From Candidatus Magasanikbacteria bacterium CG10_big_fil_rev_8_21_14_0_10_36_32 (GTDB lineage: Bacteria > Patescibacteriota > Patescibacteriia > Magasanikbacterales > GWA2-37-8): a stretch of DNA of 64,000 nt. The translations under genes and the position numbers were made by a program. The stretch is from the NCBI GenBank assembly GCA_002778465.1, contig PFBV01000002.1, positions 2,312 through 66,311 on the forward strand, written 5' to 3'. Below the pieces are notes generated by a model, which was given only the letters and a program-made list of their open reading frames with translations, had not been told where the DNA came from and did not search any database. Positions 25,689 through 46,852 of the stretch are shown piece after piece. Position 1 is the first letter of the stretch; each line of letters starts with the position of its first letter.

Positions 25689-26354
25689 ATGATAGAGGAA
25701 CAAAATCAAGAAAATTCGCAAAATCAGTTTTCCAAAGAACATAAAATCGGGTTGGTTTTATTATCGCTTTTTGCCGTTTTAGCGGTTGGTTTGGGTATTT
25801 TACAAATTAGAAATAATGCTTATCGTCCGTTTGCTTTAAACAATTCAATCCCGCCATTTTTAAATGAAGAAATAAATACCGAGGAAGCATTGCGTTACCG
25901 TGATACGGATTTAGATGGCTTGAATGATTTTGATGAATTATATATTTACAGCACCAGTCCCTATTTGGAGGATACTGATTCTGATGGGGTTAAAGACAAA
26001 GAGGAAATTGACAAAGGACGAAATCCTCTTTGTTATGAAGGAAAAAATTGCGGTTTTAATGATATGAGCATTAATGCCAGTTCATTTCCGGCCAAACAGG
26101 ATAATGTAGCTTTATATGGCGAAGCGGCTCCGCAATCAATGGAAGAATATTTGCAGAATCCTGACACCATTCGTGAATTGTTACTTACTTCAGGTTTGAG
26201 TCAGGAACTAGTTAATAAATTAACTGATGATGATTTAAAGACAATGGCTGGAGAAATTTTTGCATCCACTACTTTAATGACTGCGTCAAGTACGTCGGAT
26301 GAAACTGATTTGAGCGCCACCGCTGAATTTATAAATGATTTAATGAATAAATAA
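25689..26354 (+). CDS. Membrane-anchored protein with thrombospondin type-3-like Ca-binding repeats
   Basis: ATG at 25689 (track start 25668 is TTG). One TM helix, then DTDLDGLNDFDE and DTDSDGVKDKEE (DxDxDGxxDxxE) repeats. Confidence 0.5.
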   Translation: MIEEQNQENSQNQFSKEHKIGLVLLSLFAVLAVGLGILQIRNNAYRPFALNNSIPPFLNEEINTEEALRYRDTDLDGLNDFDELYIYSTSPYLEDTDSDGVKDKEEIDKGRNPLCYEGKNCGFNDMSINASSFPAKQDNVALYGEAAPQSMEEYLQNPDTIRELLLTSGLSQELVNKLTDDDLKTMAGEIFASTTLMTASSTSDETDLSATAEFINDLMNK

Positions 26355-26365
26355 TAATTTTTTAT

Positions 26366-27898
26366 ATGCCACAAAAGAAAATTGTGGTTTGGTTAATTAT
26401 GATTTTTGTATGCGGCGCGTTAGTACGACTGCCGCATTTTTTAACTGTCATTCCCAACGCCGGAGTTTGGGAGTCAAAAATCGCTTGGTATGATGAGGTT
26501 TTGTCTATTCATTTTGCTTCACAAGAAATAAATAGCACAATCGCTTTATCAGGTTTAGACACCAGTCCGTGTCTTTTTTTTATGATTCTTCATTTTTGGC
26601 TTTTGATTTTTAGTAACGCCAGTGTGTTTGTTGCGGCCATTCTGCCTTTTTTGTTCAGTTTAGCCGGCATTGTCGCTATTTATTTTCTCGGTCGGAGAAT
26701 TTACGACGAAAAAATTGGTTTGTTTTCCGCCGCTTTGCTTGCTTTATCTCCTTTAAATATTCAATATGCCACAGAAATCAGAGTCTATTCATTATTGGTT
26801 TTTTTGACAATTTTATTTTTGTTGTTTTTGTGGCGAATTAAGGATTTGAGCAAAATAAAAGATTGGACAGGATTTATCATCTGTTCTTTATTATTGCTGT
26901 ATGCTCATTATACGGCAATAATTTTAATTATTTTTGGTTTTATGTTTTTAGTGTTTTTTAAAAGAAATGAAACCAAGAAAATAATTTTTTCTTTTTTTGC
27001 AATCTCTGTTGGAGTAATTCCTTTAATTTTAATTTTTCAAAGATGGACGGATTTTGTCGGCGCAAATTTTTCTTTTTTTAGCCGTTTTTTTTCACATGGC
27101 GGTTTGTTGTCATTTTTTCAATATTTATATTTTATTTCTTTCGGTTCATCCGGCGCCGATGGAGCGATGATAATTTTTTCGTTGTTGATTGCCGGTTTTT
27201 TTATTTATTTTTGGCGGCGCTCAGTGGATATTAACAGTCGAGTTTTAATTGTTTTCGTTATTGCCGGTTGGTTGGCATTGGCCGGTTTTAAGTTTATTTA
27301 TCATGAACGATATTATTTAATTTTGACTATTCCGCTGATATTATTGGCGGCTGTCGCCTTGCGAATTGTTTTTGAAAAATATCGTCTGGTGAGCGTGATA
27401 GGCGGTTTATTGTTTTTGTTTATTTTTATTTTTTCTTGTTATATTGTTCCACCCGAGCACGCTTATAAATATTTTACGCCTGAGTTTGTTAAGATAATCA
27501 ACAGCCAATATCAAACAGGGGATGTGATAATTGCCGATCATTATAGTAAATTATTATGGAATCAATATTATCCTGGACCGGCTGAAATTAAATTATTTTT
27601 TCCTTATGAAAATGAATTGTTGCCGGCTGATTCAAATTTGCGCTGGCGATTTAGCGATTACGCCAATGTTAATTCTGACAATGTCGTTTTATTTGATAAT
27701 TTAGTAAAAAATGAACAAAGATTTTGGATTGTTATGTTTAATCCTCTAAATTATTCAGTTCAAGATCCGCAAGGATTACTGCCTGAATATTTAGACAGCC
27801 ATTATTCAAGGTGGGCGACTTATTTTTTTCCGCTTTTTGTCTCGAAAAACGACTTTCAGGTTGAATTACGATTATATGTCGTAAAACCAGCTGATTAA
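26366..27898 (+). CDS. GT-C fold glycosyltransferase (ArnT/PMT, GT39-like)
   Basis: ~11 TM helices, a first-loop acidic motif (AWYDEVLS), and a soluble C-terminal domain. Confidence 0.6.
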   Translation: MPQKKIVVWLIMIFVCGALVRLPHFLTVIPNAGVWESKIAWYDEVLSIHFASQEINSTIALSGLDTSPCLFFMILHFWLLIFSNASVFVAAILPFLFSLAGIVAIYFLGRRIYDEKIGLFSAALLALSPLNIQYATEIRVYSLLVFLTILFLLFLWRIKDLSKIKDWTGFIICSLLLLYAHYTAIILIIFGFMFLVFFKRNETKKIIFSFFAISVGVIPLILIFQRWTDFVGANFSFFSRFFSHGGLLSFFQYLYFISFGSSGADGAMIIFSLLIAGFFIYFWRRSVDINSRVLIVFVIAGWLALAGFKFIYHERYYLILTIPLILLAAVALRIVFEKYRLVSVIGGLLFLFIFIFSCYIVPPEHAYKYFTPEFVKIINSQYQTGDVIIADHYSKLLWNQYYPGPAEIKLFFPYENELLPADSNLRWRFSDYANVNSDNVVLFDNLVKNEQRFWIVMFNPLNYSVQDPQGLLPEYLDSHYSRWATYFFPLFVSKNDFQVELRLYVVKPAD

Positions 27899-28030
27899 AT
27901 TGAAAAGTTATTCACATTTTTAGCTATTCCAAGCATTCGTATTGTGTTATACTAATATAGTAATTGAACAGTTTATGATTGAGCCAAAAAAATATTTTTT
28001 CTCAAACAAATTGGCTTGATTTTGATATTT

Positions 28031-31000
28031 ATGATGAAATGTCCGCGAAAAATTAGTCTGAAAATTTTAATGGCCTTATTTATCGTGTCAGGTTTTTTTG
28101 GCACGGCGATTTTTGGAGTGGAAAAAGCTCAGGCGCAATACGATAATCAAATCAATGCTTCGTTTTTATCTTGGCAGGCGCAGGGTGAAGCGGAAAAAGC
28201 CAAGGCCGAAGTTCAGTCAAATTTATTGAAGAATAAAAATTACATGGTGATGAATGCGGTTATTAATGCCATGAGTTATTTTGCCAATAAAATTTCTTAT
28301 GATATGGCTGTTTGGCTGGCATCGGGTGGAAAAGGACAAGCGCCGTTTTCAAGTACTTCCGGATTTTTTAAATATTTAGGGCAAGTAACCGGAGATTCTC
28401 TCGGTGAATCGCTTGGTTCATTGGGTGAGAGTCTTGGTTTAAATATCTGCGATTTGCCGGATCCGCGGCTGGACTTGGCGCTTCAATTAGGTTTAAATTT
28501 TCATTATGCTGAACCGACACCGAAATGTTCCTGGCAGGATTTAAAAAAAGCTTACAGCGTGGAAAATTTTAAAAGTAAATATCTGAGTCAGGAAGGAACC
28601 ATTGGAAGGTTGTCCGCTTCAGTGACGGTTAAAGATACTGATTTTGGCATTTGGACTGACGCTCGCGCTAAGATTGACGGCATAGCTGTTCAAAAAGAAA
28701 ATGCCGCCCAAGCTGATCGTGAAGAAGGAAGCGGTATGAAAGCTGTAACCGATTTAATTTCCGGACAAGTTAAAACGCCGGCCGTGGTAGTGAAAGACAC
28801 GATGATGAAACAGTCGGCTGACAGTAAAATGACAAAAGAGGAAGCAAAAAAGACCGGTGAGGTTTGGGGAGCTTTCGGCGCGGGCGCTACTCAAGTCGCG
28901 TATAAAGCGGCCAGCACTTTTATCAGTACCATGCTTGGTACGGTGCTTAAGAATTTTATGGAGGGTGGTATGTTGCCGGGAGGACACAAAGTTTGTAATC
29001 CGGGTTTGACATTGACCGGTGTTAATTTGGAACCGTGTTCCAGTGATTCTTCAGGCGGCAATAATTTAGCTGATAATTATTACGCTGACGCCAGAAATAC
29101 TGATAATCGTGCCGCCGCTCAAGCTATGTTTAGCCAATTGTTGATACCCCAAATAAAAACTCTGGATAATTATAATTTGATTGCCAGTTTGGCGGAATGT
29201 TCACCTGAAAATTTATCGCCGGACAGTTGTGTGGTAGATCAATCGTTTTTACAAATTTTACAGTCAGCCGATAATGGAGAATCTTTAACTGTTAAACAGG
29301 CGATGGAAAAAGGCTGGCTACACGGAGATTGGAAAATGATTTCATCGCTTGATAAAGCCGCTTCGCAAAAACAAGATTGTTCCCAGAGCGCTTATTGTCA
29401 GCGTAATATGACATTTTTGCGTCAAGCCAGAATTTTGTCGGTTGGTTTTGAATTTGCCGCGCTTTTATCGCCGGTAAATAATCCGGTTAGCTTAAAAGAA
29501 GTAGTAGACAATTTTTATACCGTTGGCAGTCCTTATTATCATTTGATTAATCCGCATTGGGTTATTAAATTGCCAAAAATTCGCTGTAAAGCTTTTACTT
29601 TCAGTTCTATCGCTCAAAATGGCGCGCGATTGGAAGAATGTTCTGATTTGCAACATTGTGTTGGTTACAATAAAGACGGTTCTTGTCAGACTTGGGGTTA
29701 TTGTATGAAAGAACGTCCAATTTGGAAATTTAATGCCAATTACTGTGATTCGCAATATAGCACTTGTCGAGCATTTACTGATTCTGATGGAAATAGCGTC
29801 GGATATTTGGTTAGAACGTTGGATACCAGTTTTTGCGGAGAAGATACAGATGGTTGCCGTCGTTATTCGGCCGGTAAAGTTTATGCCAGCGCTACTAATT
29901 CCGTTTGGTTGCCGGAAGAAATAAAATATAATACCGTTTCTAATTATTTTTACAATTCCAGTTTATATTTTAATAAAAAACTAACCAGCTGTGACGCTAA
30001 AGATGACGGTTGTTCGGCTTTTAAATTAGCTTCTAAAACTGATACTTTATTATATTTGCGCAAAGCGCCGGATTATCTCGGTTGTTATGATGCTGATTTA
30101 AAATCAGTTCCGGCTAAATTATATGATGGAATTGCTTGGCCGAAAAATTTAACCGAATTAAGTTTGGTTACTCCGCAAAATACTGAAGCTTGTAAAAATT
30201 ATGCTCAGGTTTGTTTGCCTGAAGAAGAAAATTGCAATCTCTACACTTCTGTTTTAAATCAGGAAGCAATACCTGGTAAATTTAAACCGGCTGAAATAGT
30301 TTCCATGACCGCCGGTCAGCAATTAGTTTGGAATGATCAGTGCGATGCTTCTTGTGTCGGTTATGCCGCTTATAAAGAAATGCCAAGCAGTTATACTAAT
30401 GGAGAAAATTTGGCATATATTATTCCTTCATCCGGAAACACCTGCACATCTTATGATGCAGGTTGTTCAGCTTTTACGAATTTGAGCACCACTAATCCGT
30501 CAGGTATGGAACAAACTGAATATTTTTCTTATTTGCGTTCCTGTATTTTGCCGGATCAAACAAAACAAAAAACTTTTTATCTTTATGAAAGTTCAGAATC
30601 AGGCGGATATAAACTGCAAACTTTTGTTTTAGAAAAAGACGCTACTGGCGCGCCAAAACAAATTTGGCGAGATATATCTGAAATTGATTCATTTGGTGAT
30701 TGTGATTCAACCAGTTATGCCGCCGGAACGGCTGATCCGGATTGTCATCAGTTTAATGACGATGGTGGAAATATTTATTATAAATATCTTTCAAAAACAA
30801 TTTTAGTATCGGAAAATTGCAATCCTTATCGTTTGAACAATACCGAGTTGGTTGATGGACAATGTCCGTTTGATTTTGACGGTTTTGGCAATCGTGTTGG
30901 TAATGCGGTGGAGAAAATCAATGAGGCTTGTTATTATTATGGTTTGCCGGTAGGAGATACCAGGGGAGCAGGGGAAACAAAAGTTTGTTCAGCCGCGACT

Positions 31001-34000
31001 AATTCATGCCGCGCCTACAAGGGTAATGCCGGCAATAATGTGCGGGTGGTTTTTCAAGATAATTTTGAAAATGAAGAAATAGGCGATTGGTCTGGAGGTT
31101 TGGGCGGCAGTTTGGAAATTTCCTTGGAATCAAATCAAATTAATGGCCATTCATTAAAGAATTTTGGTCAAGATGGTTTTTATCGTCAGAATGTTGAGGT
31201 TGCAGAAGGTAAGAGTTATGTTTTAACTTTTTGGGCCAAAGGTAATGCTATTATTTTTCCTTCTTTTCAAGATGAAGGAGTTTATAAATTAAGTTTTGGT
31301 GATGCGGTTAGCTTGACTGATGTTTGGCATTATTATTCTTTCGGACCGTTAGAATTTAATCAATCAGTTACCAGTACATATTTAAATTTTAATATTTCAG
31401 GTACGGGATTAAAAAATGTTTTTATAGACAATATAAAATTAATGGAAATTACCGATTACCTGTATTTGGTTAAAAACAGTTTAAGTGTTAATCAGATTTG
31501 TGATAGTAATTTGGAAGATAATATGCCGGGTGAGGCGTTGGGTTGCACGGCCTATAAAGATCCATTAAATAATATATATAATTTAACCAATTTCAGTTAT
31601 CTTTGTCGTGAAGCGGCGGTTGGTTGTACTGCTGTGTTGGATACATATAATACTTTGAATACTGCCGAACCGCGTACTTATAATGTGTGGCTTTATGGCG
31701 AGATGATAAATTTAGATGGTCGGAGCGCTGAGGTGGTAATCGGTGGAAAAACTTTTTCATGTATTGTGCCGACAGGAGCGAAAGGTTGTTATGTTGATAT
31801 TTTTGGACCGACTTTGGCGCAAATAGTAAGTGTTAGTGTTCCTGGTATTTTAACTTCTTCCACTATTTATATTCCGGGAGATACGCCAACCAGTTCACCG
31901 ATTTATTTGGTGGCCAACAAATCGGCAACTTGTAAATCTGAAAATATCGGTTGTCGATCGGTTGGAAAAGGCACTGTCACCAGAGATGGAGTATTGAATC
32001 CTTTGTCCAGTGAATATGAAGATGTGGCGGTTAAAAATGATCCGGCGCTGTTTGATGATGTTTTGTGCGGCAGTGAATCGGTAGGTTGCCGCGGTTACAC
32101 ATCCGGTGACAGCAAATATTATTTTAAAGATCCGAAAATTATCGGCCAACGCGTTTGTGCTTATATGTCCGCTAAAAATGATAGTGGCTTGCCGATTATG
32201 GGTTGGTATTGGAAAGATAATAAAATGTGTGGCGATTCATCCGGATTTTGTTCATCAGATGCCGATTGCGCCGCCGGAGTTAAATGTCAAAATGTTCCGT
32301 GTTATCCTCTTTATTATAAATTTAATGAAACACAAGGCGCTATTGAATGGGGATTGTGGTCTTTTGGCAGTACTCAGTATAAAGGTTTTGTGGGACAATG
32401 TCCTGAAGAACAAAACGGTTGTACTGAATTTATAGATCGTGCCAGCAGCGCTCAGGTTTCTGGTAAAAAATGCGCTTTCACTGGCAAAAAATGTGAACTA
32501 AATAGTGATTGCAATGAAGAAGAAAATGATTATTGTAAAGAAAATGTTTCTGGCACTTATTATCTTTTAAATGATGGAGTTTTGGCTGAAACAAAAAATA
32601 AATGTAATGGCATGGTCAGTCAAGCCGAAGGTTGTATTTTGCTTGATCAAACGGACAAGCCGAATAAATATTGGAATACCACTTCAACCTATGAAGTTTC
32701 CCAATCCGCTCAAGATGCTTTTGTTGTGCCAGTAGATAAAGCCGAATTAAACGATGCCAATATAATTTTAAAAGTTACCCACGACAGAGAATGCGCTGAA
32801 TGGGGATATTGCGATTTAAAACAAGATTATAAAGATGAAGATACTGGTGAAACAACTTCTCGTTGTTATCATTTGGGTGTTTGTCAAAAAGCGACCGGTT
32901 CTTCAATTTTTAACAAAGAATGTTTGGTGCCGGTTACTCAATGGGATGATAAAAATCAGGAACTCTCATTGGCTCATTATAATTCCCGTGAAGCTTATTG
33001 GGATTCTTTGGATTACTCCGGTTATTCAGTGCCATGGCTTTACTCAATTGCTGATTTAACCGCTCGTCCGTTGGCTGGTGATAATTTTCATTTGGTTCAT
33101 GTTGATTACAGTGAAGATGCGGCGGGAGATTGTAATGGCAGCGCCGACAATGGAGATGTTTGCGGTTTGGATGATACGGGAAAGTGTTTTAACGGAGAAT
33201 GTTTGCATTCACCAAATAATTATTCCTCTTTGACTAACCATTTAACATTGTTAAATTGTCGTGGTAACGCCGAAGATTCCAGTCCGTTTCCATCATCTGT
33301 TTTGACTGATGAAAGCGCCAGTTTAGATTATAAAATATTTAAATCAGGATTTGAGAGTGTTAATTTATGTTATGATAAATCCGGCAGTGTGGTAAATTGT
33401 GATTGCAGTTATAAAAAATTAAGAACTTCAGCTGGTGATGTTTATACCCCGTCCAATCAGTCAGTTGGCAGTTCATATGTTTGTAGTGGTGGAACAAAAC
33501 AAGGTAAATTCTGTAATGGAAAAGATGATATCACCACTTGCGGCAGCGATGGTATTTGCGGCGTTATTCAAACATTGAGCGCAATGAACGGCTGGCAGGG
33601 ATATTGTTTGGAACGTGATACGCGACAGTTTATCAATGGCACTGAAACCGGAAATTGTTTGACTTGGTGGCCGATTGAAGTTCCGCCGGGGACTACTAAT
33701 ATTTGGGATATTGACGATTCAGCTGGTTATCAAATTGCTGAAGGAAAACAAGACAGGTTTATGTGTTTGGTTAATGAGCCGGTTATTAACGATCCTGAAA
33801 TAATGATGCATATATTATTATATGGGAGTCATGTTTCCGCAGCCAATGATTATAATATTCAGCAATTACCCAAATCTTATAAAATACAAACCGCCGGTCT
33901 TGACCATAGTTTTAAAATAACCGATTTGCCGCCCAATGCGGCTGTATCTGGTTGTTCGGACAATAATGCGGATGATGATTTTTATGACCCGTTACCTGGA

Positions 34001-36140: not shown

Positions 36141-36178
36141 AAATCCCCCAACAATTTAGTTGGGGGATTTGTTTTTTT
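36141..36178. terminator. Bidirectional rho-independent terminator
   Basis: AAATCCCCCAAC-aattta-GTTGGGGGATTT followed by GTTTTTTT, with an A-run upstream that serves the minus strand. Confidence 0.8.
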
Positions 36179-36222: not shown

Positions 36223-36747
36223 TCAAGCGTAACCTGACTGAATCAGATTGCCATTGGATAGTATAGTCGCTATCAGCCAGCCGCAACTGCCGGTTTTTAC
36301 CAGTGGCAGATTCTTTCCTTGATAATCTCCCTTGAGAAAAGCGAGAGTGCCGTTTCCGGTAAAGTTTACCACGCACATATTTCCGATTTCCGGAGTGATT
36401 GTGACGGTCATCACCATGGTAGTTTCAGTGTTGTACCAGTCGCCGGCGATATGTGTCAGCTCATTGCAACTAGCAGGATCAATGAAAACCAGTTTGGACA
36501 ATTCCGTGTCCATCACACTGTTTTCCGGCTCGGTAATGATTGGCGGCAGATTGAGATCTGAATCGCCGTTCATTTCTGAATCGCCGTATTCATCCATCAA
36601 TTCGCCACCATCAATGTCTTCGTCATAAGGATAACATCCAGATGTTATAACGGCGAACAAGAGCATTACAGCAATGGCTATAATTGCAATGACAATTGTG
36701 GCAACCGCTCCTACTGTAACATGGGAATCATAATGTAAATTTCTCAC
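36223..36747 (-). CDS. Small putative lipoprotein, atypically GC-rich
   Basis: GTG start preceded by AAGGAGG. TM/signal segment ending in the lipobox-like AVITSGC. Acidic linker, then a beta-rich domain. A hand-counted 60-nt sample (36241-36300) has 28 G+C (47%). Confidence 0.55.
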   Translation of the reverse strand: MRNLHYDSHVTVGAVATIVIAIIAIAVMLLFAVITSGCYPYDEDIDGGELMDEYGDSEMNGDSDLNLPPIITEPENSVMDTELSKLVFIDPASCNELTHIAGDWYNTETTMVMTVTITPEIGNMCVVNFTGNGTLAFLKGDYQGKNLPLVKTGSCGWLIATILSNGNLIQSGYA

Positions 36748-36960: not shown

Positions 36961-36989
36961 TTGTTGTCTTCTTTAATTTATGGTATAAT
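36961..36989 (+). promoter_or_regulatory. Extended -10 promoter candidate for the T4SS-like operon
   Basis: TTGTTG, 17 nt spacer, TATAAT with TGn immediately upstream (tggTATAAT). Confidence 0.4.
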
Positions 36990-37094: not shown

Positions 37095-40000
37095 ATGCTA
37101 CAGACTTTAGCCCGGACCGGGCGAAAATTTTGGAATTTTATCAGACCGCGCAGAAAGTGGGGTCTTATTTCGCTTTTTATTTTTGCCGGTGTCGGTTTGT
37201 GTGTTTATTTTTTTGGCGGAACATTGGTAAATTCAGCCGGTGGTTCTGAAGAAGTATATCAAGGCACTTTGCTTACTAAAATAGTAACCGATATTATGGT
37301 TTGGATTGCCGGATTTTTTATTCAGGCAACAGTTTTTATAATGGATTTTGTTATTGAAATAGCCGGTTATAGTAATTTTATAAATTCCAAAGCGGTTTTA
37401 TTTGGTTGGACGCTGGTGCGTGACATTGCCAATATGTTTTTTGTTGTGATTTTATTGATAATCGCTTTTGGTACGGTTTTGGGCGCTGAAACATATAGCT
37501 GGAAAAAACTTTTGGTAAAATTTGTTTTAGCGGCCGTGTTAGTGAATTTTAGCCGGATAATTTGCGGAATAATTATTGATGCCGCTCAGGTGTTTATGAT
37601 GACTTTTTTGAATGGTGTGGCGGCGGTAGCCGGTGGAAATATTATTAATGCTTTTAAATTAAATGATGTTTTAAGTTTTGATCCGAATGTGCAACCGGAA
37701 GGAATGACAGATGTCAGTGTTTTAGGTTCAGCCATTGCTTGTATGTTTTTTGCGGCGATTGCCGCCTTTACCATCGGCGCTTATTTTATTGTTTTACTCG
37801 GACGTTTAGTGACTTTATGGATTTTAATAATTTTATCGCCGTTGGCTTTTGTTTTAAATGTTATTCCAAAAACTCAATCTTATGCCGGACAATGGTGGTC
37901 TGAATTTACCAACAATGTTATTGCCGGTCCGATTTTGGCTTTTTTTCTTTGGTTGTCTTTTGCTGTGGTTGGCGATGGAATGCCTCATAATGAATTAAGC
38001 GATAATTCGGCTTTTATGTTAAATACCGAATCAGTGGAAAGTACGGGGAATAATAATGTAATGGGTGGTTTGGCTAAAGTTATGGAATGGGGAAATTTGG
38101 CAAATTTTATAATCGCCGTCGGTATGCTTTTAGCCGGCGTAAAAGCAACTCAAAAATTAGGTGTGATTGGTTCCGGTATGCTCGGGAGCGCGGTGGAAAT
38201 GGGCAAAAAAGTTGCGACAGTGGCGACTGGAATAGCGGCTGGCCGATGGTTGGCGCAAAAAGGTGTTGAAGGAACAAAAATTGCAGGCAAAGGCGTGTTG
38301 ATGAAAGCGCCATTTGTTGGCGGAGATGCTTGGAAACGGCGCGGTAGAACTATTGCCGGAAAAGTGTCTTCAAAAGTTCAGGATATTCAATATGCCCGCG
38401 AACAGGCGGCAAAAAAATTAGAGAAAAAAGGTGGTTTTGGAAAATTTGCCGCTGGAATTATTGAAACTGCAACTAAAAAAGAAGAAGCGTCTAAACAATG
38501 GGGGAAATTAGCCGCGATGAAAAAAGAAGTCAGAATGGAAGATATGGGTTTAGGTTCGCGTCAAGTTGGAAAAGATACTTTAGTGGAAAAAGTTCGTTTA
38601 GATACGCTTAAGGCGCAGAGTACTGCCGCCAAAGAACGCTGGTATAATAATGCTTTAGTTAAATTTTATAACGCGCCGGATGAATTAAAAGATTTACAAA
38701 CTCAGCGTGGCGGTTTAGCGACCAGAGAATCAGCGGAACAGGCGATTGTTCAGGAAGCCAGTTTGGAAATTGCTAAAGCTCAAGCTGAGTTGGAGAACAT
38801 AAAAGACAATCCGGAAAAAATCAAACAATTGAATGATAGTATTGCGCAGAGTACTGCTATTAAACAAAATGCTGAACAAAATTTATCTCAGATTGTTGAT
38901 ACCAAAAAAACACTTGATAAACAAGTTGATACTATTTTCAAAGACGATAAAAAATGGAACAAAGACAGTTTGATTGGAAAGGATATTTTAGAACAGAGAA
39001 TCCAAAAGGAAAAAAATATGTCTGATGTGGCCGCCGCTCAAGGTATGATGGAATTAAGTTATTTAAATACCGAAGCCGGCAGACAAGCTCAAGTCAACGC
39101 GGCGGAATCAAAAATTATTCAACAACAGATGGGAGAAACAGTCAATGCTCAAAAACAATTGGTTGAATTAAAAAAGATTGAAGAATTATTGAAAAAGCCG
39201 CAGCCGGGACAAGATGCGTCTGCTTTGTCCGCACGTTATCAGGCTTTGCAGCAGGATATGTATTCCTCCAAAGCCGGCGGAGAACAATTGCGGATTGATC
39301 AAGCTCGCGAGGCGGAAAAGAAATTAGCTGTGGCTCGTGATGAAAAATTAAAACAATCCAGTCAGTTACCTCGTTATTTAAGCCAAGTTTTGCAAAAACA
39401 AAATAAAGAGGATATTGATATGTATTCCTCAAAAAACTTTGACCAAATGATGGCTAATATTAAATTTTTGAGCGGTCAAATGGAAAAAGAGACAGATGTT
39501 GACAAGAAAAGCATAATGCAAAAAGATTTACAGAATTGGGTGGTAGCCTCCTTTAATCGCGGTTCTGATTTTGGCTTAGCCGCTTTGAGTACGGCAAAGA
39601 AAAATAAAGATATTTCCGCTGATAATGTGGATAGCGCCAGAGCTGCTCACTTATCGGCCTTTTTAGGGGAAGAAGTGGAACAGTCATCTGAAGGTGTGAA
39701 TAAGGCTATGGAAAAAATGAAAAAATTGCAGGGTGAAAACTTTGACGCTTTTATGACGAATTATGTTGGCGGTTTATCAATGATGGCTGATAATGGCGCG
39801 GTAACGCACGGCGGTTTGTATAAAATGGTGACTGATAAAAATACCGGCCGGCAGACTTATGAAGTGACACATAAAGATTATGATAAAGATTTGATTAAAT
39901 CCAAAAGAGATTATCATTTGTCTCAGGCTAGGCAAGCCGGTCGCGGATTTAATGGTTCTTTAGATTTTAAAGACGGTAAATTTAAATTAGACAGTGAAGT

Positions 40001-40247
40001 ATCGGTTAACCATGTTGTAAATTTGATTGGCGCTAGAACTTCGGTCGGTTATGCTAATATGCACAAGATGAATTTAGATTCATTAAGCTCTGCCATTGAA
40101 AATACTGATAAGGAAGAATTTTTGAAACAATTAGGTGAAAAATTAAGTAAAAGCATTACTGAAACAAAAGCGATGGAGATGTTATTAAAACGCATTTCGG
40201 GAAAAGCTTTAGATAAAATTAATAAATATATTACATCAAATAAATAA
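37095..40247 (+). CDS. Polytopic membrane protein (VirB6/TrbL/PrgH-like topology) with a ~700-aa K/E/Q-rich coiled-coil extension
   Basis: ~8 hydrophobic helices in the first ~340 aa (e.g. ANMFFVVILLIIAFGTVLG, LWILIILSPLAFVLNVIP). The remainder is low-complexity helical sequence rich in K/E/Q/A. Confidence 0.5.
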   Translation: MLQTLARTGRKFWNFIRPRRKWGLISLFIFAGVGLCVYFFGGTLVNSAGGSEEVYQGTLLTKIVTDIMVWIAGFFIQATVFIMDFVIEIAGYSNFINSKAVLFGWTLVRDIANMFFVVILLIIAFGTVLGAETYSWKKLLVKFVLAAVLVNFSRIICGIIIDAAQVFMMTFLNGVAAVAGGNIINAFKLNDVLSFDPNVQPEGMTDVSVLGSAIACMFFAAIAAFTIGAYFIVLLGRLVTLWILIILSPLAFVLNVIPKTQSYAGQWWSEFTNNVIAGPILAFFLWLSFAVVGDGMPHNELSDNSAFMLNTESVESTGNNNVMGGLAKVMEWGNLANFIIAVGMLLAGVKATQKLGVIGSGMLGSAVEMGKKVATVATGIAAGRWLAQKGVEGTKIAGKGVLMKAPFVGGDAWKRRGRTIAGKVSSKVQDIQYAREQAAKKLEKKGGFGKFAAGIIETATKKEEASKQWGKLAAMKKEVRMEDMGLGSRQVGKDTLVEKVRLDTLKAQSTAAKERWYNNALVKFYNAPDELKDLQTQRGGLATRESAEQAIVQEASLEIAKAQAELENIKDNPEKIKQLNDSIAQSTAIKQNAEQNLSQIVDTKKTLDKQVDTIFKDDKKWNKDSLIGKDILEQRIQKEKNMSDVAAAQGMMELSYLNTEAGRQAQVNAAESKIIQQQMGETVNAQKQLVELKKIEELLKKPQPGQDASALSARYQALQQDMYSSKAGGEQLRIDQAREAEKKLAVARDEKLKQSSQLPRYLSQVLQKQNKEDIDMYSSKNFDQMMANIKFLSGQMEKETDVDKKSIMQKDLQNWVVASFNRGSDFGLAALSTAKKNKDISADNVDSARAAHLSAFLGEEVEQSSEGVNKAMEKMKKLQGENFDAFMTNYVGGLSMMADNGAVTHGGLYKMVTDKNTGRQTYEVTHKDYDKDLIKSKRDYHLSQARQAGRGFNGSLDFKDGKFKLDSEVSVNHVVNLIGARTSVGYANMHKMNLDSLSSAIENTDKEEFLKQLGEKLSKSITETKAMEMLLKRISGKALDKINKYITSNK

Positions 40248-40285
40248 AATTAATACTGATAAATTAAGCAAGATAAGTTTTGAAT

Positions 40286-41311
40286 ATGGCATCAATTGTT
40301 AGACAACTAAACGATACTGAACTGCGAGAAAAAAATCTCGTCTATTTTGGTTTTGATACGCAGGAGATGGAAGGTTTTTGGAATGCGTTGCATGAATATT
40401 TTAATGAAGCCTCACCATCTGATGACAGACAATATTGGTGGAGTTTTTTCCGTTGGTATACTGATGCCACATGGCAGGATATGACACGAATAGATAGGGA
40501 TGTTTTTGAAAGGATTGCAGTTGGACGGCAAATACCAATGGCTTTGATTTTGGGTTTTGATGTTTGGAATAGAATTATGGCTTATCTGTCATTAAAAGGA
40601 TTAGATGAAGAAGATACGCAAAACTTATATGTGAAAATTCGCGTCGCTTTTCTTAATTCAGAAGCAATAGTTGGTTATGGAAAAGGAAATTCCGAAATTA
40701 AAATAGTTGATTTAATAAAAGAATTGACTTTGATTAACAGTCGTGGGCGGGATTCAATGGCTATGGCGGAATTTTATGAAAAAATAAAAAATTTATTATT
40801 TCCGTCTAATGATAGTTGGTTAAAAGAGTTTATTGATGTTGATTATAAAGAAGCGGTGATGAAAATGGTAGATTTGATGGATTTTTTTATTACAGTGGAA
40901 TCTGACGATTTACCGGGGATAATGGATATGTATTTGCATTCAGAATTATATCCAACTGCCTCAACTGTTGCTCCGACTTCCGCTAAACAGGTTCAGTCTA
41001 TATCATTTAATCAACCGGAGACGGTCAAAGAAAAAAAAGTTGTTTTACCTGCTAAAAAAACGGAAGTTAAAGCTATTGTTTCAACACCGACTCCAATTCC
41101 GCCCAAGCCTGTCAAACCGCCTGTTCCGTCTTATTTAGATATAAAAAAAGAAGTTAATTTGGTTTTTAAAAAAGATCAGGACGGGGAATTTGTCGATTTA
41201 GACGGAGTCCTGAATAAATTATCTGAACTGGCTGTAAAATATAGCGATAATAAAATCGCTGAACTTTATTATTTTGACGAAAAAGAAAATAAATTTAAGT
41301 GGGGAGTTTAA
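40286..41311 (+). CDS. Hypothetical cytoplasmic protein (T4SS-operon member)
   Basis: ATG at 40286 (track start 40280 is TTG). No TM helix. Pro-rich linker (TPTPIPPKPVKPPVP) before a small C-terminal domain. No recognisable family motif. Confidence 0.5.
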   Translation: MASIVRQLNDTELREKNLVYFGFDTQEMEGFWNALHEYFNEASPSDDRQYWWSFFRWYTDATWQDMTRIDRDVFERIAVGRQIPMALILGFDVWNRIMAYLSLKGLDEEDTQNLYVKIRVAFLNSEAIVGYGKGNSEIKIVDLIKELTLINSRGRDSMAMAEFYEKIKNLLFPSNDSWLKEFIDVDYKEAVMKMVDLMDFFITVESDDLPGIMDMYLHSELYPTASTVAPTSAKQVQSISFNQPETVKEKKVVLPAKKTEVKAIVSTPTPIPPKPVKPPVPSYLDIKKEVNLVFKKDQDGEFVDLDGVLNKLSELAVKYSDNKIAELYYFDEKENKFKWGV

Positions 41312-41315
41312 AATT

Positions 41316-42461
41316 ATGTCTGATAACGCAACAATTTTAATTAAAAAAGCTGATGGCACAACCGAGAAGATAACTCTGGCTGAATTTCATGCTCGACAAA
41401 AGCAGTCTGCTCCGGCAGTTTTACCACCGGCGGATATTTCCCATTCTTCCGTTAAACCGGTTAAAATTGAAAAAAAAGTTGAACCGCTAAAATCTTTTAA
41501 TCCGCCAAAGGTAGAATCCAAAATTGAATTGTCAGAAAAAATTAAAAAAACAGAATTTACCAAAGATGATGCCGTTTCGTTGTTGGATGAATCATTGGAT
41601 GATGAAAAACCGAATATGCCTTTAGTCAGCCAGTCGCGTGTTTCTCAAGCTGACGAAATTATAAATAAATTAAATTTTAGAGCGCCGGATACGATTCGAT
41701 TACGAGGATTGATTCAATTGCGGTTGAAAGAAGTGCGAAGCGATGAAGAAACAAGAAGTTGGCTGATTCGGCCGATTGTTGACGGAGGCGCCGGAATCAA
41801 TGCGATGCAAGCTGAAGATGTTTTAAAATTATGCCGTGGAGAAAAAATTTCAAATAACTTTGAAGAAGTTAGTCCTTTAAAAAAAGGTTTACCCGGCGGT
41901 TTAAATGAACTGCCAATGGCTTCCGGCAATAAAACCGCTCCGATTGTTTATAAAGAACAGCCGGTTCCGGCAATTATGCCCAATAAAAAATCTTTTGTTG
42001 CCGCTTCTCCGGCCAAAGAAATAAAAAATTTAGGAGAATTAAAAAAAATATCCGATCAGAATTTGTCTGTTGACAGACATAATAAGATTTTATCTGATGA
42101 CAAAGAAATTCCGTCTGTTCGTCATATGGTGCGAGATATTATTCCGAACAAAAAAACCAGTATGAGTCCGACTGACGAAATTCGCTTTATATCATTGGTT
42201 GATTTTCGTCGTTTGTCCGCTAATCCGGAAGAGGCGATTGCCAGATTAAAACAAAAATTTATCAATTTGAAAGATGAATCGTATCTGCTTTATTTGGATG
42301 CTTTACAGGTTTGGCGAATGAGTCCGTTGTATCAGGATTATGTTGGCAGTGTTATTCGCGCGTTAAATCAAAATGTCCGTCTTAACAATTCATTGTTAGA
42401 TAAAAACAAAATACAAATGACGGAAATATCAGCGATTATTAAAATGGAAAATAGTTTTTAA
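41316..42461 (+). CDS. Hypothetical protein (T4SS-operon member)
   Basis: ATG at 41316, 5 nt after the upstream stop and preceded by GGGGAG. The ORF-track start 41274 overlaps the upstream gene. No recognisable motif. Confidence 0.5.
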   Translation: MSDNATILIKKADGTTEKITLAEFHARQKQSAPAVLPPADISHSSVKPVKIEKKVEPLKSFNPPKVESKIELSEKIKKTEFTKDDAVSLLDESLDDEKPNMPLVSQSRVSQADEIINKLNFRAPDTIRLRGLIQLRLKEVRSDEETRSWLIRPIVDGGAGINAMQAEDVLKLCRGEKISNNFEEVSPLKKGLPGGLNELPMASGNKTAPIVYKEQPVPAIMPNKKSFVAASPAKEIKNLGELKKISDQNLSVDRHNKILSDDKEIPSVRHMVRDIIPNKKTSMSPTDEIRFISLVDFRRLSANPEEAIARLKQKFINLKDESYLLYLDALQVWRMSPLYQDYVGSVIRALNQNVRLNNSLLDKNKIQMTEISAIIKMENSF

Positions 42462-42463
42462 AT

Positions 42464-42889
42464 ATGCAACAATTTGTCGTACCTCAATTTATTGATGTGG
42501 AAGATAAAATTTTCGGACCAATCACGGCGCGGCAGTTTGTGATTTTATTGGTGGCAACATTAATTATTTTTCTCACTTATAAATTAGCTGATATTACATT
42601 ATTTATTTTTTTAACTTTGGTAATAGGCGGTTTAGCTTTAGTTTTTGCTTTTGTTAAAGTAAACGGACAGCCGTTCCATTATGTTATTTTAAGCATGATT
42701 CAGACATTACGCCGACCGAGTTTAAGAGTTTGGAATAAAACTTTTGACAAAAGCGAATTAACTCATTATCGTGAAGAATCAAAAGTTGTGGTTGTTGAAA
42801 AAATTAAACGAGTGCCAAAATTGTCTTACAGCCGTATTCGAGATTTATCTTTGGTGGTAAATACCGGCGGTTATTATAAACCTGAATAA
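42464..42889 (+). CDS. PrgI-family (VirB3-like) small T4SS membrane protein
   Basis: N-terminal VPQFIDVEDKIFGPITARQFVILLVA followed by two TM helices, as in Gram-positive conjugation PrgI/VirB3-like proteins. It sits upstream of VirB4. Confidence 0.65.
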   Translation: MQQFVVPQFIDVEDKIFGPITARQFVILLVATLIIFLTYKLADITLFIFLTLVIGGLALVFAFVKVNGQPFHYVILSMIQTLRRPSLRVWNKTFDKSELTHYREESKVVVVEKIKRVPKLSYSRIRDLSLVVNTGGYYKPE

Positions 42890-42891: not shown

Positions 42892-43581
42892 ATGAAAAAT
42901 AAAAAAGCGGTCAATAAAAGAAATGCCGTTCCGACTACACAAAAAAATACGGCTATCGCTGAAATTAAACATGATACTGTAGTGGTAAAAGATGGTACTT
43001 TGCGTTCGGTTTTGATGGTGTCCAGTATTAATTTTGCTTTAAAAAATGACGATGAACAGCAGGCGATTGTGTCTAATTATGTTTCTTTTTTAAATTCGCT
43101 TGATCATCCTTTGCAAATTCTTATTCAATCCCGTCAGCTTAATATAAAACCGTATTTGGAAAGATTGGCGGACAAAGAAAAAGAACAGCCAAATGAATTG
43201 TTAAGAATGCAAATTGCCGATTATCGTTCGTTTGTTTCAGAATTGGTCAATTTGGGAAAAATTATGAGTAAACATTTTTTTGTGGTGGTGCCTTACGATC
43301 CGCTGACAAATAAAAAAAGAGGTTTTTGGTCGCGTTTGCTTGAAGTTATTAATCCGGCCATTACAGTTCGTTTGAAAGAAGAAAGATTTTTGCAGAGAAA
43401 GAGAGATTTGGATATGCGAGTAAGACAAATTCAAGGCGGTTTGCAAAGTATGGGGTTGGAAGTTGTTAAATTAGATACTCAATCGTTGATTGAACTTTAT
43501 TATTCCGCGTATAATCCGGATATCGCTCTTAGCGAACCGTTGGCGGATGTGGTGGAAACCATGCAATTAGAAAACGCTTAA
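42892..43581 (+). CDS. Hypothetical protein between the VirB3-like and VirB4 genes
   Basis: 229 aa and soluble. The segment IKHDTVVVKDGTLRSVLMVSSINFALKNDDEQQAIVSNYVSFLNSL resembles the extreme N-terminal module of Gram-positive VirB4-type proteins. This is by-eye inference only. Confidence 0.45.
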   Translation: MKNKKAVNKRNAVPTTQKNTAIAEIKHDTVVVKDGTLRSVLMVSSINFALKNDDEQQAIVSNYVSFLNSLDHPLQILIQSRQLNIKPYLERLADKEKEQPNELLRMQIADYRSFVSELVNLGKIMSKHFFVVVPYDPLTNKKRGFWSRLLEVINPAITVRLKEERFLQRKRDLDMRVRQIQGGLQSMGLEVVKLDTQSLIELYYSAYNPDIALSEPLADVVETMQLENA

Positions 43582-43591
43582 TTTTTTATTT

Positions 43592-45463
43592 ATGGCATTT
43601 AAACCAAGCTCAATTAAAGCAGAAAAAGAATCTACTGGTCGTCTTAAAGAAGATGAAAACAAAATAAAGAAGCAGACGGCCGAAGAAATGATTACTTTGG
43701 AAGAAGAAAAGATTTTTCGCGAAGGTGTTGTCAGTATCCGTGATTTAATAGCGCCTTCCGCTTTTCGCGTTGAATCCAGTTTTATACAATTGGGTGATTT
43801 ATATTGCCGGACTATTTTCATTACCGCTTACCCGAGATATATTTCCATCGGCTGGAGTTCGCCGGTTATTAATTTGTCGGTCACCATGGACATCTCAATG
43901 TTTTTTTATCCGGTTAAATCAGCTGTTATTTTAAAACAATTAAAAAATAAAGTCGGCGCTTTGGAAGCGCAAATTAGTTCCGACACAGAAAAAGGCGCGC
44001 CTCGCGATCCAATTCGGGAAACAGCTTTGCGCGATATTGAACAATTGCGAGATAATTTAACGCAAGGAATTGAACATTTTTTTCAATTTTGTTTTTATGT
44101 TACTCTTTACGCCAAAAGTAAAGAGGAATTGGATCAAACCACTGAAGATATTGAAAATATTTTCGGTTCAAAACTGATTATGAGTCGCAAAGTTTTATAT
44201 CAGGCGGAACAAGGTTTTAATTCCACTTTACCGATGGCAAATGACGAATTGTACATTGCTTTTAATATGAATTCGTCTCCGATTGCCGCTTCTTTTCCAT
44301 TTATTTCCGCGGAATTAACCTCAGATGATGGTATTCTTTATGGCATTAATCGCCATAATAACAGTTTGATTTTGTTTGACCGGTTTTCTTTGCAAAATGG
44401 CAATATGGTGGTTTTCGCTTCGGCCGGTGCCGGAAAAAGTTACGCCGTTAAACTGGAAGTTTTGCGCACAATGATGATGGGAACCGATGTGATGATTATT
44501 GATCCGGAAATGGAATATAAACATCTTTGTGATGCGGTTGGTGGAACTTACATTAGTATTTCGTTGTCTTCGGAAGCAAAAATCAATCCATTTGATTTGC
44601 CCCGTCCGGTCGGTTCTGATATTTCCACTGAGGATATTATTCGTAGCGCCGTTATTACCATGAAAGGCTTGTTGCGTATTATGTTGAATGGTTTGACGGT
44701 GGAGCAGGATTCAATTATGGATAGAGCTTTGATTGAAACTTACGCCAAGAAAGATATTACGCCGGAGGCGGATTTATCCAATATTAAACCGCCGATTATG
44801 CAGGATTTAGTGGAAGTTTTGGAAGGTATGCAAGGTTCCGATGAATTGGTAATGAAATTAAAAAAATATACCGAAGGAACTTTCAGTGGACTGTTTAATT
44901 CGCCGACTAATGTTGATGTTAAAAATCAATTGGTGATTTATAGTGTTCGTGATTTAGAGGATGAACTTCGCCCGATTGCTATTTATTCAATCGTTAACTA
45001 TATTTGGAATGTTGTACGTTCGGAAAGAAAAAAACGAGTTTTGGTGATTGATGAAGCTTGGTGGCTGATGATGCATGAGGACAGCGCCAGATTTATTTAT
45101 GGTTTGGTTAAACGCTGCCGAAAATATTATCTCGGAGTGACTACTATCACTCAGGATGTGAATGACTTTTTGAAATCTCAATATGGACAGGCGATCGTTA
45201 CCAACTCGGCTTTGCAGTTGTTGTTGCGTCAGTCGCCGGCGGCGGTGGATTTGGTTCAGCGGGTGTTTATGTTGACTGACAGCGAGAAATATTTGTTATT
45301 GGAAAGCGGAGTGGGCGAGGGTATATTTTTTGCCGGCAATAAACATGCCGCCATTAAAGTTGTTGCTTCTTATACAGAAGATCAGTTGGTTACCACCAAT
45401 CCGGAACAATTATTGGCTATAGAAAAAGCAAAGCGCGAATTTGAAGAACAGAGTAAAAAATAA
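43592..45463 (+). CDS. virB4: VirB4/PrgJ-class T4SS ATPase
   Basis: Walker A FASAGAGKSYAV, Walker B RVLVIDEAWWLM, downstream GVTTITQD motif. The N-terminal half (IRDLIAPSAF..GDLYCRTIFITAYPRYISIGW) is as in Gram-positive VirB4 homologs. Confidence 0.85.
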   Translation: MAFKPSSIKAEKESTGRLKEDENKIKKQTAEEMITLEEEKIFREGVVSIRDLIAPSAFRVESSFIQLGDLYCRTIFITAYPRYISIGWSSPVINLSVTMDISMFFYPVKSAVILKQLKNKVGALEAQISSDTEKGAPRDPIRETALRDIEQLRDNLTQGIEHFFQFCFYVTLYAKSKEELDQTTEDIENIFGSKLIMSRKVLYQAEQGFNSTLPMANDELYIAFNMNSSPIAASFPFISAELTSDDGILYGINRHNNSLILFDRFSLQNGNMVVFASAGAGKSYAVKLEVLRTMMMGTDVMIIDPEMEYKHLCDAVGGTYISISLSSEAKINPFDLPRPVGSDISTEDIIRSAVITMKGLLRIMLNGLTVEQDSIMDRALIETYAKKDITPEADLSNIKPPIMQDLVEVLEGMQGSDELVMKLKKYTEGTFSGLFNSPTNVDVKNQLVIYSVRDLEDELRPIAIYSIVNYIWNVVRSERKKRVLVIDEAWWLMMHEDSARFIYGLVKRCRKYYLGVTTITQDVNDFLKSQYGQAIVTNSALQLLLRQSPAAVDLVQRVFMLTDSEKYLLLESGVGEGIFFAGNKHAAIKVVASYTEDQLVTTNPEQLLAIEKAKREFEEQSKK

Positions 45464-45493
45464 TTCACTTTTTATTTAACAGGGTAAAACAAT

Positions 45494-46090
45494 ATGACTA
45501 CACTCCGCACAAGAATTTTTATTATTTTTAGCATATTTTTTCTGTTCGTTTTAGCGGTTAGCATTATTTTGATTGTGATTAATAAGCAAAAACAGGCGGT
45601 TATTGAAACAACTTCTACACCGTCGGCGATAGATTTTGATAATTTTACGCAGGATAAAATTAGCGCGCCGGCTGCCCAAGTGACGCCAACTCAAGGAATA
45701 ACCGTAAAACAACCAACCACTGAGGAACAAATGAAAAATGCCGCTAAACAGATAGCAAAGATTTTTGTGGAACGCTATGGCACTTATTCCACTGATAATA
45801 ATTTCAGCAATATTAAAGAATTGGATACAATGTGCAGTCGGGATTTGTGGAGTGTTTTAAGTTCGCGGATAACTGACACTCAGGTCAATAACGGATTTGT
45901 CGGTGTTACCACTAAAGCGGTTACCTCAGTAATCACTTCTTGGCAAACAGATAAAGCTATTGTTGAAATTACAACTGTCCGGACAGAAACAAAAGATGGC
46001 GTCACTTCTTCAAAAAATCAAAAAGCTACAGTTACTTTGGTTAATGTTCAGAATAATTGGCTGGTGGATGATGCAAAATGGGGACAATAA
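45494..46090 (+). CDS. Bitopic membrane protein, VirB8/PrgL-like candidate
   Basis: One N-terminal TM helix, a T/P/Q-rich linker, and a ~115-aa C-terminal alpha+beta domain (AAKQIAKIFVERYGTYS...ATVTLVNVQNNWLVDDAKW). This is compatible with an NTF2-like fold, and the gene follows VirB4. Confidence 0.35.
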   Translation: MTTLRTRIFIIFSIFFLFVLAVSIILIVINKQKQAVIETTSTPSAIDFDNFTQDKISAPAAQVTPTQGITVKQPTTEEQMKNAAKQIAKIFVERYGTYSTDNNFSNIKELDTMCSRDLWSVLSSRITDTQVNNGFVGVTTKAVTSVITSWQTDKAIVEITTVRTETKDGVTSSKNQKATVTLVNVQNNWLVDDAKWGQ

Positions 46091-46106
46091 AAAAATATAT
46101 TTAACA

Positions 46107-46141
46107 AAAACCCCGATATCAAATCGGGGTTTTAAATTTTT
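46107..46141 (+). terminator. Rho-independent terminator closing the T4SS-like operon
   Basis: AAAACCCCGAT-atcaa-ATCGGGGTTTT followed by AAATTTTT. Confidence 0.7.
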
Positions 46142-46852
46142 ATGGATAATTTTTTTAAGTTTATCAAAGATATTCTTTTTCCGATTTTTTGCGTTGATTG
46201 CGGAAAAGAAGGCGAATGGTGGTGTTCGCCTTGCCGTAAGAAAATCAAGTCAGTTTTAATTGCCAAATGTCCGGTTTGTCACCGCCATAGCGAATTTGGC
46301 GCAGTTTGTGTTGTTTGTCGCTCGGTTTCCTCTTTGGATGGTTTGGTTTCCTATTTGCCTTATTTTGAAAAATATCCGGCCGCTATTTTGATTCATAAAT
46401 TTAAATATCAATACGCTAAAGATATTGTTGAAATTTGGAAAAAAATAATGTCGCCGATAAATTTTTTTTGGTTGGAAAATAAAAAAACAGTTGCTATTAT
46501 TCCTGTGCCGTTGCACAGCCGGCGTGAACGGGAGCGCGGTTTTAATCAGGCCGATTTACTTGTCGGAGTTTTTCATGATAAAATGTCTGCTGAATTTTCA
46601 ACAGTTGATTTTCAGATTAATCGTGATTTAATTCGTCGCCGGTTTACTCAACAGCAGGCGAAATTGACTAAAGAGGAAAGGTTGGAAAATATAAAAGATG
46701 CTTTTGATTGGCAAGGCAAAGAATGTCCGAAAACGATTATTTTGATTGATGATGTTTTTACCAGTGGCGCCACTATGCAGGAATGCGCGAAAATTTTAAA
46801 ATCCGCCGGCGCGGAAATTGTTTGGGGTGTCACTCTGTCCAGAGCGGAGTAA
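46142..46852 (+). CDS. comFC: ComF-family protein (ComFC: double zinc ribbon plus phosphoribosyltransferase domain)
   Basis: CVDCGKEGEWWCSPC and CPVCHR...CVVCR zinc ribbons. PRTase loop IILIDDVFTSGATMQE. Confidence 0.8.
   Translation: MDNFFKFIKDILFPIFCVDCGKEGEWWCSPCRKKIKSVLIAKCPVCHRHSEFGAVCVVCRSVSSLDGLVSYLPYFEKYPAAILIHKFKYQYAKDIVEIWKKIMSPINFFWLENKKTVAIIPVPLHSRRERERGFNQADLLVGVFHDKMSAEFSTVDFQINRDLIRRRFTQQQAKLTKEERLENIKDAFDWQGKECPKTIILIDDVFTSGATMQECAKILKSAGAEIVWGVTLSRAE

Follow-up and report, generated by a model that had tools for sequence, protein, structure and literature searches.

We analysed a 64,000-nucleotide stretch of the genome of Candidatus Magasanikbacteria bacterium CG10_big_fil_rev_8_21_14_0_10_36_32 (contig PFBV01000002.1, positions 2,312 to 66,311; hereafter the window), in which the gene for a giant cysteine-rich protein lies upstream of an operon resembling a type IV secretion system (T4SS), with ComFC behind it. 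The region (25689-46852) comprises three separate transcription units, namely a surface module, a T4SS of the Patescibacteria type and ComFC, and its composition and gene order mark it as, in all probability, a chromosomal neighbourhood passed on by vertical descent and typical of Magasanikbacteria and related ABY1 lineages. In the reading that we favour, with a probability of about 0.55, the giant protein acts beside the T4SS rather than through it. We observed directly the identities of the genes, the limits of the units, and their conservation and synteny. The window has a GC content of 36.5% and nearly all of its genes lie on the + strand; the region is flanked by housekeeping genes (NusA, YidC, RF1, Sua5, DUF4015 and KsgA upstream; HSP20, VanW, ClpP and SMC downstream). 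The open reading frame (ORF) of the giant protein matches, at 100% identity, a hypothetical protein from a metagenome-assembled genome of Candidatus Magasanikbacteria (locus tag COU29_00535). All genes named in a preliminary description of the window were found at the coordinates given there.

The order RF1-Sua5-DUF4015-KsgA-TSP3tm-giant-...-VirB6like-...-VirB4-g198-ComFC, in which TSP3tm denotes a small membrane protein and g198 the last protein of the T4SS operon, recurs in dozens of species-level genomes and in metagenome contigs. The preliminary description had instead seen the region as a 21-kb host-interaction island with a lipoprotein gene of foreign composition inside, and horizontal acquisition of such an island now appears scarcely credible. 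The region is not patchily present among relatives, as its housekeeping-flanked order is shared across dozens of species-level genomes; its GC content (0.374) is hardly shifted from that of the window (0.365); and no mobility genes were found in it, nor any integrase or relaxase among the window ORFs. A tRNA-Ser(GCT) gene (47529-47624), the only tRNA gene of the window, and a GIY-YIG ORF do lie just downstream (47165-47624), but no second copy of the 3' end of this tRNA gene, such as would form an att repeat, occurs in the window. The small lipoprotein gene does stand out, with 45% GC against 36.5% for the window, but its positional homologs in five other genomes are likewise 8-14 points GC-richer than their own loci. 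Because the excess is common to the gene and its homologs in all six genomes compared, the bias reflects the protein family, not the origin of the gene.

The boundaries of the three units were identified from terminators and spacers. The giant gene (28016..36127, + strand; NCBI start at 28034) is separated from the next + strand gene, at 37095, by 967 nt. This gap contains a single small gene, as the preliminary description had indicated, which lies on the minus strand at 36223-36747 and encodes the lipoprotein. A bidirectional hairpin terminator (36141..36170; 12-bp stem with 6 GC pairs, T-runs on both strands) is common to the giant gene and the convergent lipoprotein gene. An extended -10-like promoter element, TGgTATAAT, was read from the sequence at 36981..36989 (+ strand) within the AT-rich spacer, some 105 nt before the T4SS operon begins, so the operon probably has its own promoter. 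A hairpin scan located the terminator that ends the T4SS operon (46107..46133, + strand) and a second bidirectional terminator after ComFC (47104..47126, both strands). ComFC itself (46142..46852, + strand) starts immediately after the T4SS terminator, just as previously described.

The preliminary description had tied the giant gene to the T4SS-like operon, an idea that depended on their linkage being conserved in related genomes; the linkage is conserved and the idea is not refuted on this count. Look-ups of exact proteins yielded 10 independent genomic contexts, in seven of which the T4SS operon lay downstream of the giant gene, including loci whose giants are 26-28% identical. With at most a few small ORFs between, the T4SS followed the giant gene in six of them (L001, L003, L004, L009, L170 and L171); in L008 it was 7.8 kb away, and in L006, L007 and L172 it was not within 10 kb. 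A metagenome scan anchored on a conserved motif of the giant protein collected 80 loci, 70 of which were distinct at 95% nucleotide identity. A VirB6-like gene was adjacent to the giant gene in 43 of the 50 evaluable giant-anchored loci, downstream in 42 and upstream in one, and the distance from the stop codon of the giant gene to the first VirB6-like tblastn match ranged from 4 nt to 5.1 kb. When VirB6 served as the anchor, a giant homolog was present within 10 kb in at least 44 of the 59 GTDB species genomes with 6 kb or more of upstream sequence: at most 3.5 kb upstream in 33, 4.3-7.2 kb upstream in 7 and downstream in 4, with none detected in 15. The figure of 44 is a lower bound, since several of the 15 negatives show Cys-rich ORFs at the edge of the locus. 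At the lineage level, adjacency was found in 64 of 72 evaluable clusters (70% identity over a 170-aa core), a count that includes the VirB6-anchored loci and is therefore biased upward.

Certain junctions are operon-like, with 4 nt between the stop codon of the giant gene and the ATG of VirB6 in L042 and L114 and 16 nt in L171. Adjacency is also kept in loci whose giants can be aligned over just 9-30% of their length (L009, L170 and L171). Seven loci of one Magasanikbacteria subclade (L029, L034, L036, L047, L090, L091 and L092), viewed within 10 kb, show an alternative order, VirB6-g343-(small ORF)-giant-lipoprotein (arrangement b), in which g343 is a conserved protein of the T4SS operon. Neither KsgA nor TSP3tm was seen upstream in any of the seven, and ValRS/TyrRS come next in L091, the sole locus of this type with sequence beyond the giant gene. 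The giant gene of arrangement b has kept its place beside VirB6 and g343 and has lost that beside KsgA and TSP3tm.

Other genes and rearrangements were encountered at these loci. Between the giant gene and VirB6 there is a HEPN/MNT toxin-antitoxin pair in L003 (19345-19960) and ORF6N with PDDEXK_3 in L009 (18173-19646), and a 23S_rRNA_IVP gene lies between g343 and the giant gene in the arrangement-b locus L091 (6106-6510). L170 carries DUF559 just upstream of the giant gene (9321-9677) and 23S_rRNA_IVP inside the T4SS gene run (27071-27394). In the window, HSP20 and VanW (50338-52797) come 4-6 kb after the T4SS; in L172 (4234-7436) they are inverted and stand immediately upstream of TSP3tm-giant, and no T4SS follows the giant gene. 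This would fit a rearrangement by which that site lost its T4SS. In L007 (10001-28367), giant paralogs of 2788 and 2713 aa are encoded in tandem, and a laminin-G-rich protein exceeding 1700 aa comes after them; these genes directly follow a ribosomal protein/SecY/Adk cluster, and the T4SS is not nearby. An apparent giant-VirB6 fusion in L052, a 3573-aa ORF, was rejected as an artefact, in which a 100-N scaffold gap (~9860-10000) happens to keep the frame open.

The giant protein has 2703 aa, 99 of which are Cys (3.7%). Its sole hydrophobic segment is N-terminal and is followed by AQA|Q. Behind the signal peptide there is a helical N-terminal region, then Cys-rich modules with seven C-x6-GC-x2-[FY] loops, a beta-sandwich resembling carbohydrate-binding modules (CBM4/22-like; ~aa 1010-1145) and, after a variable region (aa 1900-2450), a Cys-rich C-terminal end that is semi-conserved. 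The protein is highly conserved over aa 1-1900, poorly over aa 1900-2450 and to an intermediate degree at the C-terminal end, and about 50 Cys residues in the first 1150 aa are invariant or nearly so among 34 homologs. The signal peptide and the invariant cysteines indicate that the protein is Sec-exported, extracellular and disulfide-bonded. When the first 1150 aa were compared with 1.84 billion representatives using phmmer, 1045 clusters were obtained at E<=1e-30, nearly all of 2500-3200 aa and aligning from the N-terminus.

Against Pfam, the giant protein gave a weak CBM_4_9 match alone; a sequence search of the PDB returned nothing at E<=1, and no LPXTG motif was found in the protein. AlphaFold models were of poor overall confidence (pLDDT 56), with locally good parts. 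The beta-jelly-roll fold of the CBM-like domain superposes on solved CBMs, and the domain qualifies as CBM4/9/22-type. For the model of the C-terminal half (aa 1504-2703; pLDDT 56), a Foldseek search of the PDB gave nothing below E 0.1, only non-significant Ig-like resemblances. No enzyme domain, for example one substituting for VirB1, was found in either modelled half.

TSP3tm (25668..26354, + strand, ATG at 25689; 228 aa) has one transmembrane (TM) helix at aa 27-45 and two canonical DxDxDGxxD TSP3-type Ca-binding motifs. It scores 13.8 bits with Pfam TSP3_bac (cut-off 25), and the motifs are near-invariant and the best-conserved part of the protein among 20 homologs. In the giant-anchored scan, TSP3tm immediately preceded the giant gene in 59 of 63 loci. 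The GT-C glycosyltransferase gene that separates the two in the window (26366..27898, + strand; PMT_2, 43.2 bits against a cut-off of 26.1, E 6e-11; ~11 TM segments) was matched by tblastn in L001 and L002 alone among more than 160 related loci, and its position relative to TSP3tm varies. The enzyme is thus present, as the preliminary description had proposed; it is a lineage-specific insertion, not a conserved member of the module. The lipoprotein gene (36223..36747, minus strand) has an AGGAGG Shine-Dalgarno sequence, a GTG start and a GC content of 0.45. Its 174-aa acidic product begins with a signal that bears a lipobox Cys, continues with a linker rich in D, E and G and ends in a small C-terminal domain that contains Cys; it gave no match in Pfam and NCBIfam. 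Positional homologs in L001, L003, L004, L006 and L091 have in common the lipobox Cys, an acidic D/T/S-rich linker and a C..IEGDWYN..C domain. The convergent lipoprotein gene lies downstream of the giant gene in Magasanikbacteria-type loci and likewise in other surroundings, in the rearranged L091 and the T4SS-less L006.

The second unit (37095-46090) consists of seven tightly packed + strand genes, 2-32 nt apart. Its gene content identifies it as the already published Patescibacteria-type T4SS, which is MPF-FATA-derived, relaxase-less and chromosomal. The first gene (37095..40247) encodes an extended VirB6-like protein of 1050 aa, with a polytopic N-terminal domain of ~420 aa (7-8 hydrophobic segments) and a charged hydrophilic C-terminal domain of ~630 aa. 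The protein has no Pfam or NCBIfam match of its own, and its VirB6 identity is transitive: the homolog P0255 (40% identity) passes Pfam TrbL/VirB6 (PF04610) with 28.8 bits against a cut-off of 25.9, while P0227 reaches 24.5 bits; many homologs carry PF19590, and conserved motifs are seen in their alignment. The VirB6-like profile found nothing meaningful in the PDB, and among 72,556 plasmids tblastn found no match to the VirB6-like domain.

Next come two conserved proteins without TM segments or known domains, g343 (40280..41311; also without Cys) and g395 (41274..42461; likely start ATG at 41316). Neither these nor g198 matched Pfam or NCBIfam, and the g343 profile found no relative in the PDB. 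They are followed by a PrgI/VirB3-like membrane protein (42464..42889; PF12666, 39.4 bits against a cut-off of 27; two TM segments) and a TrsD-like protein that corresponds to a separately encoded VirB4 N-terminal domain (42892..43581; NF041427 TrsD, E 5.5e-10, below the curated cut-off; VirB4 N-terminal matches; neighbours annotated TraC-like). The VirB4 ATPase (43592..45463) scores 355 bits with NF045971 (CD1110-family model; cut-off 325) and matches P-loop_TraG (E 2e-29); Walker A (FASAGAGKS) and Walker B (VLVIDEAW) motifs were read from its sequence. The last gene encodes g198 (45494..46090), a bitopic protein of 198 aa with an N-terminal TM segment, kept after VirB4 in 51 loci. Its topology and position are VirB8-like, and its profile matched PrgL (7aed) weakly (E 1.3) over the soluble domain, which makes it a candidate VirB8/PrgL-like protein.

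Neither a relaxase nor a VirD4-type coupling protein (T4CP) was found in any scanned ORF of the window. A VirB1/PrgK-type cell-wall hydrolase domain was absent from 37095-46090 and from the giant protein, and the locus showed no VirB2 pilin array or PrgB homolog. A VanW/PG_binding protein is encoded 4.7 kb downstream of the operon. In the distant relative L171, the operon extends past the g198-like gene to a protein with a weak T4SS_pilin match (28392-29186), which has no equivalent at the window locus.

The favoured reading may be put as follows. The first unit would be a surface module formed by TSP3tm, the lineage-specific GT-C enzyme, the giant Sec-exported, disulfide-rich protein with its CBM-like, putatively glycan-binding domain, and the convergent acidic lipoprotein. 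TSP3tm and the lipoprotein, both predicted to be membrane-tethered and bearing Ca-binding or acidic segments, may hold the giant protein at the cell surface, where it could act as a glycan-binding adhesin for host contact, with the variable region (aa 1900-2450) tuned to the host. Extended VirB6, g343, g395, PrgI/VirB3, TrsD, VirB4 and the VirB8-like candidate make up the T4SS of the second unit, and ComFC is the third. What we infer here is that the giant protein is anchored at the surface, serves as an adhesin and cooperates with the T4SS. It would then be the extracellular attachment arm of the T4SS, in the role played elsewhere by PrgB-type adhesins or VirB2 pili. We hold this to be plausible, if unproven, because of the operon-like junctions, the gene order of arrangement b, the adjacency in very distant homologs and the lack of a pilin or adhesin at the locus. 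A more specific version, in which the giant protein, TSP3tm and the lipoprotein together form the missing host-binding extracellular part of the ABY1 T4SS, replace the VirB2 pilus or PrgB-type adhesin and dock on the extended VirB6/g343, is tentative and rather unlikely.

Several observations weigh against cooperation between the giant protein and the T4SS. KsgA, an rRNA methyltransferase without a conceivable role in secretion, served as the control gene and was found at most 2.5 kb away on the upstream side of TSP3tm in 44 of 49 loci, a linkage as tight as that of VirB6; RF1-Sua5-DUF4015 is also syntenic. Adjacency is no proof of common function, because KsgA is linked equally tightly, and adjacency statistics alone cannot separate function from inherited synteny. 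The interval that separates the giant gene from VirB6 is, in relatives, a hot spot for unrelated cargo genes (HEPN/MNT, ORF6N, PDDEXK and 23S_rRNA_IVP). Eight or more lineages (L006, L007, L172, L138, L150 and others) have TSP3tm-giant but no T4SS in reach, and we infer from PMC12102498 that most Patescibacteria have this T4SS without a member of the giant family. In the window, the giant gene ends at a strong terminator, and the T4SS operon has its promoter-like element and the 967-nt spacer in front. The structure models of the giant protein, moreover, are of low confidence outside three or four domains. Synteny by descent, with the giant/TSP3/lipoprotein module serving an independent surface or envelope function on a rarely broken stretch of chromosome, is a serious possibility, though we would not expect it to be the answer. 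It agrees with the similar frequencies of KsgA and VirB6 adjacency (44/49 and 43/50), the separate transcription units of the window, the variable cargo between both units and the lineages that have the module but no nearby T4SS; arrangement b, confined to one clade, would be a single event. Descent alone fits less well with the junctions of 4-16 nt in some lineages, with the arrangement-b giant that kept VirB6/g343 and lost KsgA/TSP3tm, and with adjacency that persists to barely alignable giants.

The preliminary description had also proposed that the giant protein is the adhesin or the substrate of the T4SS. Adjacency to the T4SS was borne out and the adhesin role is plausible only, whereas a role as secreted substrate or effector is very unlikely, because the Sec signal with its AXA site and the 99 mostly invariant cysteines imply export and disulfide formation outside the cell. 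The size and the multi-domain, disulfide-rich build suit a surface protein, and the window lacks a T4CP. What speaks for a substrate is the conserved adjacency only, together with the precedent of pertussis toxin, a Sec-exported T4SS substrate. Of the coupling to DNA acquisition, likewise proposed before, the adjacency of ComFC is real, and the part on ComEC is unsupported. If the T4SS were a DNA-uptake machine coupled to ComFC/ComEC in the manner of ComB or Ced, the giant protein would provide host attachment for DNA acquisition; this we consider improbable. ComFC (TIGR00201, E 4e-30, positions 1-190 of 190), with a double zinc ribbon (DZR_2) and a phosphoribosyltransferase domain (Pribosyltran), directly follows g198 in 25 of 38 evaluable loci; comF, recG and radA have been reported near the T4SS of class ABY1, for which the ComFC-T4SS adjacency is already published (PMC12102498); and VirB4 gives weak generic matches to CedB/CedD models. 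However, a hairpin terminator stands between g198 and comFC, and the adjacency is missing in Falkowbacteria-type loci that keep the same operon. ComEC, 23 kb upstream, is outside the conserved block. It is split into a channel part (12797-14278; Competence and DUF4131) and a metallo-beta-lactamase part (15129-15986; ComEC_Rec2 positions 423-663), with an S-adenosylmethionine (SAM) methyltransferase (14223-14843) and an 86-aa ORF between the pieces, and was not found in the corresponding upstream regions of L001, L003 and L004. In Southlakia epibionticum, the homologous T4SS cluster SEML1_0006-0019 is essential, whereas comEC, comF and dprA are dispensable (Wang et al. 2023; PMC10633639); transformation in this organism can be attributed to comEC alone (PMC10633639; PMC12857230), and according to a 2025 FEMS review, the essentiality of the T4SS cannot stem from interaction with ComEC (PMC12857230).

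The T4SS of the window resembles those of the Patescibacteria clade (PMC12102498; PMC10633639) in having VirB4, a separate TrsD, PrgI/VirB3, a VirB6-like protein and a VirB8-like candidate. The clade, as described by Quinonero-Coronel et al. 2025, has neither relaxase nor T4CP, is chromosomal and lies near KsgA, with comF adjacent in class ABY1, and no adhesin was detected for its T4SSs (PMC12102498); the window locus is likewise chromosomal, without relaxase or coupling protein, near KsgA and next to comF as in ABY1. It differs by the lack of a VirB2-like pilin array and a VirB1-type hydrolase, by the two conserved cytoplasmic proteins g343 and g395 encoded within the operon, and by the giant Cys-rich module conserved beside virB6, which is not reported in PMC12102498. 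The giant cysteine-rich surface protein was previously uncharacterised, and the TSP3tm-giant-lipoprotein module is what is new here.

The MPF-FATA T4SS of pCF10 (PrgH/PrgI/PrgJ/PrgK/PrgL, with the adhesin PrgB) has in common with the window locus PrgI and VirB4/PrgJ homologs, a VirB6/PrgH-type polytopic protein, a bitopic PrgL-like candidate and a large surface protein encoded beside the channel genes. The window locus, in contrast, is not on a mobile element and is without relaxase, T4CP and PrgK hydrolase, and the giant protein is not homologous to PrgB, as it has no LPXTG motif, no sequence relative in the PDB and a weak CBM match alone in Pfam. The resemblance is one of functional analogy only. 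Extended VirB6 proteins, such as the Rickettsiales VirB6 paralogs with large hydrophilic domains (PMC7648143; PMC12857230), are comparable to the window's VirB6-like protein with its ~630-aa hydrophilic C-terminal extension, and in both cases the VirB6 gene is accompanied by a very large protein; here, however, the giant does not extend VirB6 but is a polypeptide of its own, exported by Sec. Giant proteins of uncultivated bacteria with a symbiotic or predatory life, such as those of Omnitrophota (bioRxiv 10.1101/2023.11.21.568195), are likewise extracellular, multi-domain and very large, and mostly unannotatable by sequence search, whereas the window giant comes from another phylum and family, is much smaller and has no detected enzymatic domain.

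Epibiotic growth requires the Patescibacteria T4SS in the single organism tested, and the giant family beside virB6 offers a concrete candidate for host contact. If it has this role, a family of more than 1000 giants without annotation would consist of accessory adhesins of the T4SS and set host range. If the linkage is merely inherited synteny, the island assignment is still removed, and the KsgA-giant-T4SS-ComFC block is shown to be conserved backbone in the clade.

Elsewhere in the window, a second large surface protein of 1921 aa (3918-9683) carries the adhesin repeats Big_6, Big_13, Flg_new_2 and Ca_tandemer and is unrelated to the giant family. A 521-aa polytopic membrane protein (g521; 48004-49569) has no family match; its sequence suggests another glycosyltransferase-like membrane enzyme. 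The gene for g521 lies beside ComFC, on the opposite strand, in close relatives. In the window, the GIY-YIG ORF (120 aa) abuts tRNA-Ser(GCT) at 47165-47624. L010, L012 and L015 are without this ORF and have the g521 homolog on the opposite strand directly after ComFC, and this difference suggests a local insertion or inversion downstream of ComFC.

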